From assembly GCA_964016885.1 (NCBI GenBank), contig OZ024752.1, positions 10,354,001 through 10,418,000 on the forward strand: a DNA stretch of 64,000 nucleotides, read 5' to 3'. The position numbers and the translations under genes were made by a program. Shown here piece by piece: positions 1,831 to 50,603 of the stretch. The notes beneath the pieces were generated by a model. That model ran no database searches. It was not told where the DNA came from and worked only from the letters and a program-made list of their open reading frames with translations. Position 1 is the first letter of the stretch, and every line of letters starts with the position of its first letter. The stretch comes from Eledone cirrhosa. Its lineage: Eukaryota.

Positions 1831-1882
1831 ATATACAATATATTAACAAATGGAAACAATATTTATAAAACCATATTTATTT

Positions 1883-1938
1883 TATTATACATATTTCAAG
1901 GGCCACCAGGGCAAATTATGGTGCGCTTTCATCAGATA
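1883..1938 (-). ncRNA. type I hammerhead ribozyme motif
   Basis: Minus strand: UAU-CUGAUGA-aagcgcacca...uggug.gcccuu-GAAA-UAUGUA-U-A-AUA; same 3' half as 31880-31946; stem I only 3 bp. Confidence 0.6.
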
Positions 1939-2302
1939 CTTACTCCAATAAGATATTTACTCAAATTTGTTGAGTGCTTTATATCAGTTATAAAAATATT
2001 TTAAAGCTTGTTGTATCCCAACAAATTAAATATAACCTCTGCATATATATATATTTGAGCGACCTTCAATATGTATGTCAACCAATATGTGTGCGTGTTT
2101 GAGGGAATGTTAGTGTGTGTAAAAGAAAGAAAGGGGATGTTGGAAAAAATATAGCAAAATAATGACTGGCGTTCAATTTGCTAGGCTGTTTGAGAGTATA
2201 TCTATGTGTGTGAAAGTATGTGTATGTATGCCTGTGATTGTGTATTTTTGCAAGTGTGTGTGTGGTGTGCGCGTTTATAGATATATATATTCTCATACAT
2301 AA

Positions 2303-2490
2303 TAATTCTTTCTACTTTTGGCACAAGGCCAGCAATTACCCAGTGCATTACTGGTACTTTATTTTATCGACCTCGTAAGGATGAAAGGCAAAGTTAACGT
2401 CGGCGGGATTTGAACTCAGATCATAGAGGGCCGTAACTATGCTACAAAGCATGGCGTCCGACCCTCTACCGATACTGCCATCCACCGCCT
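2303..2490 (-). mobile_element. SINE family 1
   Basis: Same A/B boxes, central domain and tail as 69-260. Confidence 0.9.
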
Positions 2491-2983
2491 CACATAATAA
2501 TGTATGCATATGCACACATATATGTGTACACAAAAAAATTTAGTATATCTAATTAGCACTTTTAAATAGGAATATCAACCGAATACATATCCCCTCATTA
2601 GTATCACTGTAATCAAAACAACAATCAGTTAATTGTGATTCTTTAAAGATCAGTATCACTTGTGTAACGTTCTTTCCACTGTTTTACAACCCACCATGCA
2701 ACATCTTTTGTTTTTGTAAAATGTACTATTAGAATATATACAGCTCATGTATGAACACTTAGTTGTGTCTTTGTAGTCGGCACATGCATGTTAGCTTTGT
2801 TAATTTAATTCATATACTGTTGTACGTGCATGTGCGTGCGTGTATGTGTGTGTAAGTATACATCTATGTATGTATGCGTTTATGTAAGTATGTTAGTGTG
2901 AGTGCATGTCTGTGTTTAAATCGCTATGTAAGCATGTATTGAGGCAGACATGCACACACGCACGCACACACACATAAGTGTGT

Positions 2984-3511
2984 GTGAGAGATAGAGAGAG
3001 AAGAGGGAGAGAAGAAGAGGGAGAGAGAGAGAGGAGAGAGAGAAGAGAGAGAAGAGAGGGCGAGAGAGATAGAGAAGAGAGAGAGAGAGAGATAGAGATA
3101 GAAGAGAGAGAGAGAGATAGAAGAGAGAGAGAGATAGAAGAGATAGAGAGAGAGATAGAAGAGAGAGAGAGAGAGATAGAAGAGATAGAGGAGATAGAGA
3201 GGAGAGAGAGAGAGAAGAGAGTAGAGATAGAAGAGAGAGAGAAGAGAGAAGAGATAGAAGAGAGAGAGAGAAGAGATAGAAGAGAGAGAGAGAAGAGAGA
3301 GAAGAGAGAGGAGAGAGAAGAGAGAGAGGAGAGAGAAGAGAGAGAGGAGAGAATAGAGAGGAGAGATAGAGAGGAGAGAGAGGAGAGAGAGAGGAGAGAG
3401 AGAGAGAGAGAGGAGAGAGAGAGGAGAGAGAGAGAGGGGAGAGAGAGAGAGAAAGAGAGAGAGAGAAAGAGAGAGAGAGAACGAGAGAGAGAGAACGAGA
3501 GAGAGAGAGAA

Positions 3512-8812: not shown

Positions 8813-8844
<32 letters not shown>

Positions 8845-8915
8845 TATTAGAAAATATTTTTTTTTACAAAATGAAAAAAAAAAAAACGAGATGTCCTACA
8901 CGAGTAAAAGTATAA

Positions 8916-9160
8916 GGAAAAATGATGAAATCCAAAATGCAACTGGAGTCTTTAAAATATTTATTTGGTTCCTTACCGGATTTACAGTTCTTATGCTTTT
9001 CAAAAGTAGAATTGAGATGAAGGGTTTGTGCTTCCTTGCAAAACCCCAAACCGTCCATCTCAATTCTACTTCTAAAAAGCATAAGAACTGTGAACACGGT
9101 AAGGAACCAAATAAATATTTTTAAACAGACTCCAGTTGCATTTTCGATTTCGTTTTTTTT

Positions 9161-9162
<2 letters not shown>
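8916..9162. mobile_element. (TA)n-flanked fold-back insert (arms ~8916-9028 / 9047-9162)
   Basis: Arms reverse-complementary; this explains the mirror-image ORFs 8789..9124 and 8864..9097. Confidence 0.75.
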
Positions 9163-9200
<38 letters not shown>

Positions 9201-34381: not shown

Positions 34382-34733
34382 TGACTATATATATAGAGAG
34401 AGACACACACACCGTATTTCCCGGCGCCGAAGACTGCCCTCGTTGTGCAACGAAAGATTTATGTAAATTATGTAAACTATATATATATATATGTGTCTAT
34501 ATTGTATCTGTATTATTTTTGACCGCCGGTCAGTCAATGGCAACATTGAGGACCGAGTAAGTTAGATCACAGATATAATAAAAGACAGCGAGAAGCGAAA
34601 ACCAACCAAACAGTGAGTGTGTTCTGTTATTAATTCTGGCAATATTACGCAAATATGACCCTCCCCAAGTATAACAATATCTGTTTCGACACACGATTTC
34701 AGATAAAAAACCTCGCAAAACTATATATATATG

Positions 34734-34789
<56 letters not shown>

Positions 34790-45607: not shown

Positions 45608-46370
45608 ACTCACCTCAATCCGGATTCTCACTTGAAACATTTTTTTTTAATTTCTAATTGTTAATTTTTTAATTTTTCTGTTTTTTAATTTATAGTTTCT
45701 GATATCTGATTTAGGGTCTTTGGTTTTAATTTTTTATTTCCAACTCACTCATAACTTCCAATGTGAAACCATGATACCTGGAATTAAGTATATTTTCTCT
45801 TAGGGGTTGATGGTCAGTTGTACTGTCCATGCTTGGTGAGAGCTAGTATTGTGACCTGTAAAAACTAACACACTCCCATCCCCACTGGTTTTCGGCTGAC
45901 TGCCGCAGACGGGATGGGTAGCAGTAAACTATGGTACAGGCCTGAATGGGTCATTGTTTGGCTAAGAGGGTGAACTGACTAAACGAATTTCGTTGAAATC
46001 TGCGGTAGCTTATGATCAACTACCTCTGAACCTGCGCCTGCGCAGACCGGTGTGGGTGAATTGGTACTCACAGGGGAACGGATGAAGAATCCACAAACAC
46101 ACTCTTCGTACGTTCCCATGTCGATTCAATTTGGATTGCCTCGTAAACATAACCTTATTATGTAACAAGCTGTCTGACGATGTCGCGACACTGGCACACA
46201 GAACAGTGTGGACACTGTCGGCATTGAATTATATATCACAGCATTATTATTAAAAGACTTCAACATATGAAACTACTTCGCTTTTCCTTATTCGATATTT
46301 ACTCCGTCACTCCTATGTGGAATAAGTACGTTGAGTGCTTGATTTGAATTGCATCAATGTTTACCCTAAG

Positions 46371-46404
<34 letters not shown>

Positions 46405-46405
<1 letters not shown>

Positions 46406-47795
46406 AACAACCTCACCACCAGAAACAGCACACTACCAACGTTCTACCAACTCATTAAATCCTACAAAACCTGTGTTACTCTAAAGATAAGACCAATTGT
46501 CTTGAGTATAGAAGGACCCTTCTATAAAATCTCCTGGTTACTCTCCCAGATCCTCAAGCCGATACTTGCTACTTTTACTTGATATGTCAGCAGCTCCTGT
46601 TTTTTTTTCAGATACATAGATGATATCCTCATCCTCACATTATCCCATGAAGAGGCCGACATAATATCTACTGTATTTTCAAACACATAAATTACGATTT
46701 ACCACAGAACACCCCGATATAACTGGTTCCTGCTGGACTTGCTACTAAGAGTAACAGAAGAACGTACTATATATACCTACTTCAATAGGAACCCGGTTTG
46801 TGCATTATAGAGCATCCCTTCCCCATTGGTGCTAAAACCGGATACATAAGAAATGAACTTACACGTATCTGGAATAAATGTAGCGAGGCAGGGCACCAGC
46901 TCACTCACAGTGCACACTTCATTAAATGTACTGAAGCCGAACGGATACCGAATATCCCCAGTGAATCGACTGAAGAATCGAAGGCGCCGCAGGCATAAGA
47001 CCTTCTCTAATACCTGCTTCATGAAATTATCACATTTCAGCGAAAGCATAACCACAGGTATCCGCAGAGTTATCATAAAACAAGGTCTTGAGATACAGTG
47101 ACCACACTCCTACCCTTCACTGCATTGATACATGTTTTAAAAGCAATCGAGAGACAAAAATCAATGCTCGCTGACTAACTGCCCTATCCACTATACAGGT
47201 ATGTGCCAGAGTGCACGTGATATACCGGATTGAATGCAACAAATGTAAAGAGTTCTACATTGGTAGCACGACACAAGCACTTCATACTCGCATTGAAGAA
47301 CACGTCAACTCACGCGCATCTTCATTTAAAAACATTGACAAATGTAGAACATCAACCAAAATATTACCGTTACCATTAAAGATAGTGATAGAAATGTGGG
47401 CAGTTTAAGAATTTAGGAAGCCTTGCTCACACGTAGACTCAACCTTCAAATAAATAATATATTAGAACTCAGCACACAGTACTTGACATAAAAGACACAC
47501 CCACAGGCACACAAACTAAACATCTCATACATAAAAAGAAAACTGATTTCATGAAATACTATAATCTCAAAGAGAGGAAATTGGAACATTATCCACTGAA
47601 AGTTCCTTAAATCCCGATGAAGGGACTTTTAGGTAACAAAATATTGGACAGAATAAAGAGCAACAAAAAACAAAAAGATTGCCGGGTAACTTACTTTCCG
47701 TTACCTCATCTTACAGTCCATGTTACATTGTTTAGCCTTCTATCACTTTCAACGTTTTATGTTCAAGGAAACTACATGCTTCAAGGAAACTACAA
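46405..47795 (+). mobile_element. decayed Penelope-like retroelement (RT + GIY-YIG endonuclease + 3' region)
   Basis: LPTFYQLIKSYK...KIRPIV...WLLSQILKP; FRYIDDILI; GYIRNELTRIWNKCS; Cys-rich linker; VIYRIECNKCKEFYIGSTTQALHTRIEEH; possible decayed hammerhead at ~47612-47650; (TA)n on both sides. Confidence 0.85.
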
Positions 47796-48632
47796 CACAC
47801 ACACACATATTATATATATATATATATATATAGAGTGTGGTATACATGCGTATGCATATATATATATAATTACATATATTCACATGCATATACACAAACT
47901 CGTGTATATACACATCTAAGGCCTTGAAAAGCTTGTTGAAAACACAGGCCAGACCAGCTTGGCGCCGCTTTTGTGTGTGTTCGAGCGTGCGTGCGTGTTT
48001 AATCCACAACAAATAACATTGTCAAAACAGCATGATGAACATGTCCCTGTTGCATTCCCGCATTAGTTATAATTTGTTAATAAAAAACGTCGGGTATTTA
48101 TGTTACAACCTAATACATGAATATGTTTGTGTGAACTTGTTATTTTGGTAGTACACATATAATATAATCTAATTGATTCAGAGAAGAAATAAGAGATAAT
48201 ATGACGGTCAAATTACTTCTCGTTAATTCAGATCCTATGGCTTTTAATTTTCCCATGCGTTAACCTAGAAATTGACACTTTACTCAAAATATTCATTCAT
48301 ATAATAATATATTACCCTCAGATATCCTAACGTCCAAAACAGTAGTTATTCCTTTCATGACTCTACATTTTGACATTCTTGTATATTCTTCCGTATCATA
48401 AGTAATATAAAAAAAATCGCCACGACAAATATATATATATATATATGTATATGAAATACGTCCCTTCACGCACAAGGCGCCAAGGTACGCATGTATTGTC
48501 CAACCAAGTGCCAATGTGGTTCAATGGCGGGTTAATAAATTAACGAGCCAGAACAAATATAAACAAGGTTTAGTAAATAATGAAAAAGTTTCAAAATAAA
48601 TTTTAAAAAAATTGACTTTACCTACTATAGTT

Positions 48633-48716
48633 ACCTTTACCGATCGGTTTCGAATCCCAAAAATAAAACGGAGACCATACGGCCTTCGTTGCAAAGAAAG
48701 ATTCTCGTCAGAAGGT
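48633..48716 (-). ncRNA. type I hammerhead ribozyme (inverted monomer)
   Basis: Exact reverse complement of 49272-49355. Confidence 0.85.
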
Positions 48717-49271
48717 TCTTTTCATTCAAAGAATATAAAATTCCTGAATTTAAATCACAAACTAGCGCTATCAAAAACTGTTCCTGGGATGAGAGTGGAT
48801 GATGTAGAACAGGTTTATCAAGGGCCGTAGCAAAGATAGAGGCAAAAGGAGGTAGGTCAAACTAGCCACCGCTATTGCTAGCAGCAGTCGGAATGACCCG
48901 TTTTGTTCTCAACGTTGTTCTCATTATTTACTAAACCTTGTTTATATTTGTTCTGGCTCGTTAATTTATCAACCCGCCATTGAACCACATTGGCACTTGG
49001 TTGGACAATACATGCGTACCTTGGCGCCTTGTGCGTGAAGGGACGTATTTCATATTACTACTACCTCCACTAACGTTGAGAACAAACCGGGTCATTCCGA
49101 CTGCTGCTAGCAATAGCGGTGGCTAGTTTGACCTACCTCCTTTTGCCTCTATCTTTGCTACGGCCCTTGATAAACCTGTTCTACATCATCCACTCTCATC
49201 CCAGGAACAGTTTTTGATAGCGCTAGTTTGTGATTTAAATTCAGGAATTTTATATTCTTTGAATGAAAAGA

Positions 49272-49355
49272 ACCTTCTGACGAGAATCTTTCTTTGCAAC
49301 GAAGGCCGTATGGTCTCCGTTTTATTTTTGGGATTCGAAACCGATCGGTAAAGGT
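49272..49355 (+). ncRNA. type I hammerhead ribozyme (monomer 1)
   Basis: ACCUU-CUGACGA-GAAUC(43 nt)GAUUC-GAAA-CC(GAUC)GG-U-A-AAGGU; GUA triplet, predicted cleavage after 49350. Confidence 0.88.
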
Positions 49356-49752
49356 AACTATAGTAGGTAAAGTCAATTTTTAAAAATTTATTTTGAAACT
49401 TTCATTATTTACTAAACCTTGTTTATATTTGTTCTGGCTCGTTAATTTATTAACCCGCCATTGAACCACATTGGCACTTGGTTGGACAATACATGCGTAC
49501 CTTGGCGCCTTGTGCGTGAAGGGACGTATTTCATATTACTACTACCTCCACTAACGTTGAGAACAAACCGGGTCATTCCGACTGTTGCTAGCAATAGCGG
49601 TGGCTAGTTTGACCTACCTCCTTTTGCCTCTATCTTTGCTACGGCCCTTGATAAACCTGTTCTACATCATCCACTCTCATCCCAGGAACAGTTTTTGATA
49701 GCGCTAGTTTGTGATTTAAATTCAGGAATTTTATATTCTTTGAATGAAAAGA

Positions 49753-49836
49753 ACCTTCTGACGAGAATCTTTCTTTGCAACGAAGGCCGTATGGTCTCCG
49801 TTTTATTTTTGGGATTCGAAACCGATCGGTAAAGGT
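49753..49836 (+). ncRNA. type I hammerhead ribozyme (monomer 2)
   Basis: Identical motif; predicted cleavage after 49831. Confidence 0.88.
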
Positions 49837-50235
49837 AACTATAGTAGGTAAAGTCAATTTTTTAAAATTTATTTTGAAACTTTTTCATTATTTACTAAAC
49901 CTTGTTTATATTTGTTCTGGCTCGTTAATTTATTAACCCGCCATTGAACCACATTGGCACTTGGTTGGACAATACATGCGTACCTTGGCGCCTTGTGCGT
50001 GAAGGGACGTATTTCATATTACTACTACCTCCACTAACGTTGAGAACAAACCGGGTCATTCCGACTGTTGCTAGCAATAGCGGTGGCTAGTTTGACCCAC
50101 CTCCTTTTGCCTCTATCTTTGCTACGGCCCTTGATAAACCTGTTCTACATCATCCACTCTCATCCCAGGAACAGTTTTTGATAGCGCTAGTTTGTGATTT
50201 AAATTCAGGAATTTTATATTCTTTGAATGAAAAGA

Positions 50236-50319
50236 ACCTTCTGACGAGAATCTTTCTTTGCAACGAAGGCCGTATGGTCTCCGTTTTATTTTTGGGATTC
50301 GAAACCGATCGGTAAAGGT
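50236..50319 (+). ncRNA. type I hammerhead ribozyme (monomer 3)
   Basis: Identical motif; predicted cleavage after 50314. Confidence 0.88.
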
Positions 50320-50603
50320 AACTATAGTAGGTAAAGTCAACTTTTTAAAATTTATTTTGAAACTTTTTCATTATTTACTAAACCTTGTTTATATATATAT
50401 ATATATATATATATATCGCCACGACAAATAAATATATATATTAAAATATAAATATGAATAAAATAGATGTTCTTTTGATCAATTAAATTTTATTAATACA
50501 TATATTTTAATATTAATAACTCTGGAAAAATATTCACTGCAGAGTGCTTCCAATCTACTGTAAAACTCATTCTTTGATATACTCATTGAATCTTGTTTAA
50601 CTC

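Follow-up and report, generated by a model that had tools for sequence, protein, structure and literature searches.

Tandem hammerhead units with an inverted 5′ arm in Eledone cirrhosa: a probable non-LTR retrozyme with Penelope-type insertion ends

The insertion in the window and its ribozymes

The stretch of Eledone cirrhosa DNA analysed here (the window, 64,000 nt of contig OZ024752.1) carries a tandem array of non-coding units, each with a hammerhead ribozyme motif. Its parts are listed below by window position. Unit positions count from the ribozyme cut, position 1 being window 49832.

48416..48431, no strand: left copy of the target-site duplication, 16 bp, matching the right copy (only two occurrences in the 64-kb window)
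48432..48448, no strand: left (TA)n, spacer between the duplication and the inverted arm, from the sequence
48449..48916, minus strand: inverted arm, 468 nt, unit 205-483 then 1-188; its outer end is site B (188)
48449..48556, minus strand: PLE-type tail, 108 nt, unit 81-188, at the outer end of the inverted arm only
48633..48716, minus strand: type I hammerhead of the inverted arm, from the motif scan; predicted cut 48638/48637
48905..48925, no strand: inversion junction with a short local duplication, from the sequence
48918..50394, plus strand: direct arm, 1,477 nt, made up of unit 51-483, two complete units and unit 1-80; its outer end is site A (80)
49272..49355, plus strand: type I hammerhead 1, from the motif scan; predicted cut after 49350
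49351..49831, plus strand: complete cut-to-cut unit, 481 nt
49753..49836, plus strand: type I hammerhead 2, from the motif scan; predicted cut after 49831
49832..50314, plus strand: complete cut-to-cut unit, 483 nt, the reference for unit numbering
50236..50319, plus strand: type I hammerhead 3, from the motif scan; predicted cut after 50314
50395..50414, no strand: right (TA)n, spacer between site A and the duplication, from the sequence
50415..50430, no strand: right copy of the target-site duplication, 16 bp, the second of the two occurrences in the window

The 16-bp repeat occurs exactly twice, at both boundaries and with (TA)n inside each copy, so the whole is one insertion with a target-site duplication. 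The array is one retrotransposon insertion, and its reading as a satellite was not borne out. The first-pass annotation had described a tandem array of ~482-nt units with type I hammerheads, including an inverted copy. This was confirmed by TRF (period 483, 3.1 copies, 99% matches at 48921-50394) and by a motif scan, which found four identical copies of the hammerhead motif in the element (cores at 49277, 49758 and 50241 on the plus strand and at 48711 on the minus strand). While the repeats and ribozymes stood, that reading had missed the target duplication, the TA tracts, the inverted 5′ arm and the two fixed ends of a Penelope-type insertion. The three tandem monomers that it counted (481, 483 and 483) correspond to 3.06 units in the direct arm, with spacings between copies of 481 then 483, but the arm is composed of 433+481+483+80 nt and only two units (481 and 483 nt) are complete from cut to cut. 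The inverted monomer is likewise present, 93-100% complementary to the direct units, but it measures 468 nt and lacks unit positions 189-204. The junction between the two arms would fit the end joining of two cDNA ends. A read-through RNA over the inversion (window 48449-49536) would form a ~470-bp hairpin, on which editing or small-RNA silencing would be likely to act.

As annotated, the ribozyme strand has no coding capacity: the longest ATG-started ORF of the circularised unit spans 13 aa on this strand and 44 aa on the opposite one. The proposed cut sites after GUA also agree with the sequence, the GUA ends lying at 49350, 49831 and 50314, and three consecutive units of the window each carry a complete type I hammerhead. 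Core and stem I are intact in 36 of 43 distinct young sequences and in 28 of 44 that are older or partly deleted, and the ribozyme stems are kept over a range of 67-100% sequence identity. Across 39 family hammerheads, 94.5% of stem cells are paired; two-sided changes fall in 21 cells, 19 of them at a single stem II pair (G-C/A-U/U-A). None of 500 shuffles gave a covariation as high, in a test that is inflated by kinship among the sequences and reflects mostly one inherited pair. Stem III has 4 bp and a 3-nt loop in the older subfamilies and is a perfect palindrome in the young ones.

The active monomer fold of the window sequence has a predicted weight of ~1.5% and lies 2.1 kcal/mol above the minimum, and the palindromic stem III of two units is predicted to form a duplex of -16.6 kcal/mol. 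Such modelled pairing between units fits the dimeric model as given in the available text of Cervera 2014 (PMC4209133). Self-cleavage of unit transcripts is predicted, as are unit-length linear and circular RNAs from the array. Among Xenopus retrozyme dimers in vitro, 1 of 9 is reported to have cleaved and 8 of 9 did not (bioRxiv 10.64898/2026.07.22.740005). Folding of the whole unit is no better than that of shuffled sequences (z -1.19), and the hammerhead region behaves likewise (z 0.03). The expectation that Rfam type I models would recognise these ribozymes failed at both the gathering and the E-value thresholds, probably because of their 43-nt stem II loop.

The family and its outer ends

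An 18-nt motif of stem III and stem I gave 1,252 exact matches in the ~3.0-Gb genome against none for the reversed control; hence, the hammerhead repeat is not a product of chance. A search with the unit yielded 1,254 candidates, and the best 40, which were scored, contain full units 98-100% identical on many contigs. The mis-assembly that the annotation had named as a possible refutation was thus not borne out. A variant motif, taken from public runs, had 1,058 matches in the genome and retrieved sister subfamilies of 75-95% identity. The window copy is older than at least two sister subfamilies, one of 485 nt (the L132 group), with 100%-identical copies on seven contigs among the best 40 candidates, and a 483-nt variant 3% from the window (the L211 group), both with arrays of up to nine near-identical full units. 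A distant family of ~466 nt shares the long-loop hammerhead design and the core of the tail region, with ends near 86 and 195 (L182 6695-7510; L062 6500-7420). The family and diverged relatives are also present in contigs of four independent public runs, the window's unique left flank lying outside their coverage. Copies are dispersed, have no LTR ends, and have fixed-site ends joined to microsatellite; the family is young, non-coding and recently mobile. One apparent 660-nt family (L126) was rejected as an ordinary unit carrying an insertion, presumably SINE-like. Two retrozyme copies also carry an LTR-type element (a 366-bp solo repeat at L101 1529-1894 and a 2.2-kb form with two repeats at L131 3227-5451), as independent insertions that both lie between unit positions 48 and 94.

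Simple repeats, mostly (TA)n, adjoin the primed ends in nearly all loci that were read, which points to a bias towards microsatellite or AT-rich targets, and target duplications measure 12-16 bp. In the window and at locus L025, (TA)n stands between the element and a duplication of unique sequence, on a side that bears no TA tract in the reconstructed empty site, which suggests that TA may have been added during priming or in an earlier tract-making event. A convincing unique-sequence duplication with TA inside was found at these 2 of 39 loci, other automatic calls being short or simple, and the end at L207/L208 lies directly in a CATA-type repeat, a counter-example to de novo TA. A general de novo (TA)n tail is thus not established. 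On the right flank of L091, ~44 nt of the left genomic flank recur inverted between TA tracts, suggesting that target DNA was copied during insertion. TA tracts in this genome gather the ends of many PLE-type families.

The outer ends follow a two-site rule. The young set comprises 39 distinct insertions (40 clusters, with one duplicated pair counted once). Thirteen are plain 5′-truncated tandems, with ends at 80 (8), 74 (1) or 188 (4), and every inverted insertion (26/26) pairs an outer end at 80 with one at 188-193. No inversion pairs 80 with 80 or 188 with 188 (p about 1.5e-8 under independent ends). Mixed ends recur in 6 of the 7 inverted insertions of the 485-nt subfamily with ends read, in 12 of 14 of the older subfamilies, at L211 and in the distant ~466-nt family (L182), while L139 (82/41), L120 and the second insertion at L133 are exceptions. 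The stretch between sites 80 and 188 is a PLE-like tail, here 108 nt long; the one-end tail, inverted 5′-truncated copy and partial tandems occur in all 26 inverted insertions.

Sites A and B are predicted single-stranded A/U stretches beside conserved hairpins. The structure of the tail region is conserved with little covariation, positions 97-114 having been chosen through the search motif. Priming by AUAU alone was rejected, as a third AUAU at 388 is never an outer end. An AUAU-set site B was also rejected, since the 485-nt subfamily ends at 188-194 with its AUAU near 180; site B is fixed by position rather than by AUAU alone. Short arms (<=110 nt) make up 9 of 26 B arms against 1 of 26 A arms (p 0.011, among loci picked by best score with one long arm required, which biases this test). 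Four B arms stop at 79-89, adjoining site A (p 0.003), as expected with both primers on the same RNA. The two arms overlap in the template, and both can exceed one unit (8/26).

Several of these features are familiar from known elements. Metazoan non-LTR retrozymes (coral, mussel, axolotl), so far as their published accounts go, share the non-coding tandem units with a type I hammerhead per unit, a GC content below 45-50%, a visible target duplication >4 bp and co-occurrence with PLEs. Here the unit has 481-485 nt and a structured 43-nt stem II loop that Rfam misses. The annotated "comparatively long monomer" does exceed the 170-400 nt given for metazoan non-LTR retrozymes by Cervera and de la Pena 2020 (PMC7229834), but it falls within the 51-972 bp of a vertebrate survey (bioRxiv 10.64898/2026.07.22.740005). 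The inverted 5′ arm, the two fixed ends and the microsatellite targeting are undescribed for retrozymes in the available text of these two sources, and the word "inverted" occurs 0 times in the main text of PMC7229834. A plant-type LTR retrozyme has a type III hammerhead and a 4-bp duplication, in contrast to the type I hammerhead, 12-16 bp duplications and tandem units seen here.

The insertion anatomy is closer to that of PLEs, for which Craig 2021 (PMC8557442) describes partial tandems, an inverted 5′-truncated copy, a (TA)n bias and a tail of 30-40 bp, often at one end only. Frangieh 2024 (PMC11167929) showed that this tail reaches from one internal RT start site to a second, and that cleavage and extension take place on both strands of the target; a dimeric protein is predicted there. 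The retrozyme thus shares with Poseidon PAc of Anolis and with Neptune/Naiad elements, as these are described there, the partial tandems, inverted 5′-truncated copy, one-end tail, AT-rich or (TA)n targets and two internal starts downstream of the hammerhead. It differs from such PLEs in having no ORF, a 108-nt tail (30-40 in PLEs) and up to about 10 full units per arm. Its starts are also A/U-rich with 2-4 nt of possible microhomology, whereas those of PAc are reported to lie in an AC-rich stem-loop without homology.

In the twin priming of LINE-1, both target ends prime on one RNA, resulting in a 5′ inversion. Here, in contrast, each of the two priming sites has a fixed, internal position, and the template stretches copied into the arms overlap. 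A literature search, mostly of open-access main texts, returned nothing on strict pairing of PLE start sites or on a cephalopod retrozyme, and the main text of a 2026 Octopus repeat annotation (PMC13282606) contains neither "ribozyme" nor "retrozyme". The annotation's proposal of a young non-LTR retrozyme with a palindromic stem III is supported by these sequence features, on which the element would add a member to a known class with an unusually informative insertion anatomy. Taken as a whole, the element is probably best explained as a Penelope-like retroelement that is non-autonomous and belongs with the non-LTR retrozymes.

The copied template

Units within an insertion are strikingly alike. 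At the sites diagnostic of subfamilies, none of 25 within-locus pairs of full units disagree, compared with 877 of 1,249 between-locus pairs, and private variants are often common to both arms (L014, L020, L090, L098 and L219/L220). At locus L132, nine full units and an inverted arm are alike except for one 2-nt homopolymer indel and 1-2 substitutions. The array of L211 comprises eight full units plus a truncated one, and 436G is present in every one of them; the best 40 of 1,638 candidates include no exact match besides L211 itself, and three sister loci are without the variant. Such homogeneity is most simply accounted for if one unit-length template had been copied repeatedly. Meanwhile, some older loci carry private variants in only part of their units (377 and 441 at L098, 193 at L012, 197 at L030 and 237 in the window), and the outer piece of L092 deviates from its other units. 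Part-shared variants are not predicted by a single monomeric template, so multimeric templates or later gene conversion are needed for them.

These observations bear on the rival that survives best, which we nevertheless consider unlikely. It also has a retrozyme mobilised by a PLE, but copied from a linear, uncleaved read-through transcript or a multimeric circle, with long arrays coming from mother arrays or from DNA expansion after insertion and with the ribozyme in a side role. Precedent comes from PAc, for which the available text of PMC11167929 reports that the ribozyme is dispensable, that dead ribozymes are tolerated and that unprocessed, uncleaved RNA is the main substrate in vitro. 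The part-shared variants at L098, L012, L030 and in the window are in register, the predicted active fold is a minor species and arrays of 5-9 units could be mothers of shorter ones, all as this rival would have it. L132 and L211, however, lack an equal or longer mother among their best 40 matches, although a long mother array could be absent from this assembly, and the variant of L211 is found in its 5′-truncated unit as well as in all full units. Linear copying with loss at the 5′ side could only shorten arrays, yet the newest subfamilies have the longest ones. Conservation of the ribozyme stems across so wide a range of identity also argues against this rival.

Penelope-like elements and the proposed mechanism

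The genome holds 10,595 GIY-YIG PLE candidates, and remnants of such elements also lie around the insertion in the window:

46370-47600: decayed, frameshifted Penelope-type element, with GIY-YIG at 47175-47405 (Pfam 1.4e-6) and a 76% DNA match to an RT-bearing copy in L140
41890-42580: short inverted repeat with a (TA)n end and another hammerhead-like motif (core 42488), also in L133 and L064, probably the termini of a different PLE-type family
272-459, 8841-9167, 31938 and 34652-34759: further PLE-family fragments and one more hammerhead-like motif

The decayed Penelope with the GIY-YIG fragment at 47175-47405 lies ~1 kb beyond the target duplication, and the fragment was therefore rejected as a part of the element.

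Autonomous Neptune-type PLEs of this genome follow the pattern of the retrozyme: three families each display two TA-joined ends, which lie ~80/146, 158/219 and 119/160 nt past the cut of the family's own ribozyme. Their tails are ~40-66 nt long, against 108 in the retrozyme, and the classifiable inverted pairs (6 of 6, among 12 rows listed) are mixed. The Neptune family of L061/L062 has 150 scored copies with 97-100% amino acid identity and a minimal hammerhead with the same stem I as the retrozyme and a palindromic stem III. Its first end also lies ~80 nt after the cut, and its tail is ~66 nt long; the L061 family and the retrozyme share only the ribozyme stem motifs and the ~80-nt spacing. 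We tentatively put forward this young family as a possible donor of the reverse transcriptase. In many L061/L062 copies the open frame measures exactly 775 aa. Upstream of it, a frame with an ATG opens a short way past the pLTR, and a conserved split or frameshift is possible. Their ribozyme core is a U3/A8 variant.

The retrozyme unit itself, compared by nhmmer with 99 PLE loci of the thousands of candidates in the genome, matched only neighbouring retrozymes, and neither RT nor GIY-YIG reading frames of the autonomous kind occur, there being no ORF in the unit or adjoining any of the 39 young insertions. Among these loci and insertions, the monomer was accordingly not found to be the terminal repeat of an autonomous Penelope, the case that the annotation had set against itself. 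Homology to a pLTR is reported in 24 of 57 Xenopus retrozyme families (bioRxiv 10.64898/2026.07.22.740005); in contrast, none to a pLTR of known type was found here.

It is very unlikely, then, that an autonomous PLE has the monomer as its pseudo-LTR and that the arrays are truncated partial tandems of that PLE. The insertion anatomy is indeed PLE anatomy as described in PMC8557442, and in L133 an older family member, represented by its ribozyme end and positions 1-188, comes after a PLE 3′ part. However, units follow one another head to tail up to nine times with no ORF between them, and 0 of 39 young insertions adjoin one. L133 was also rejected as an autonomous partner: it is a chimera (1870-3461) in which ~100 nt of another small hammerhead repeat lie between the PLE 3′ part and the retrozyme end and tail, the PLE family in question carries a pLTR, a ribozyme and ends of its own, and a retrozyme monomer is joined to the ORF in 0 of 49 further loci of this family. 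The chimera suggests template jumps between different RNAs, and at most hints that retrozyme and PLE RNAs meet the same RT. The least credible account is that a satellite spread at the DNA level, through extrachromosomal circles or unequal exchange, or that assembly went wrong at (TA)n tracts: most copies do lie within long simple repeats, where assembly is harder, but the fixed 3′ ends with variable 5′ truncation, the target duplication, the strict A/B pairing, the locus-specific haplotypes and the presence of the family in independent public runs all speak against it.

Returning to the preferred reading, the element is very probably a non-LTR retrozyme that moves by means of a PLE reverse transcriptase, and we lean towards a full model that combines twin priming at two sites with rolling-circle copying of a monomeric circle. 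In this model, a tandem locus would be transcribed through at least two hammerheads, which would cut best as a dimer via the palindromic stem III, and a host ligase would circularise the unit-length RNA. The RT/GIY-YIG protein of an autonomous Neptune-type PLE would then bind the conserved 60-190 region and cut both strands of an AT-rich target. Of the two target 3′ ends, each would prime at a different site, A (80) or B (188-194), and each cDNA would circle the template across the ribozyme junction, for up to about 10 turns. Joining of the two cDNA ends would leave an inverted 5′ arm and a tail on one side only, while failure of one primer would give a plain 5′-truncated tandem.

Circle-templated tandem cDNA was proposed earlier for metazoan non-LTR retrozymes, and earlier publications describe these retrozymes with their circular RNAs and name PLEs as the likely helpers (PMC7229834; bioRxiv 10.64898/2026.07.22.740005). 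The making of tandem and inverted PLE insertions is, by contrast, called still undefined in PMC8557442. As a more speculative proposal, an asymmetric twin-primed rolling-circle reverse transcription might operate, in which a PLE enzyme, dimeric and related to telomerase, would dock on one small RNA circle. The two ends of a double-strand cut would be primed at two obligatory sites, 108 nt apart, and both subunits would copy around the circle; the enzyme may also add (TA)n reiteratively at the primed ends, making new landing sites. If true, this would explain the PLE tail, the inverted pLTR and the tandem form in one mechanism.

The class itself is known; hence, the value of these findings is mechanistic rather than that of a new kind of element. 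The countable end rule (26/26) and the near-identical arrays make the mechanism testable in vitro with a 483-nt RNA, and the family is small, still moving, as its 100%-identical copies indicate, and shares its genome with young Neptune-type ORFs. That animal retrozymes move as circles by means of PLE enzymes has been argued from co-occurrence, from pLTR phylogeny and from the detection of RNA, to which the insertions described here would, if the model is true, add genomic evidence for retrozyme circles as the template of transposition.
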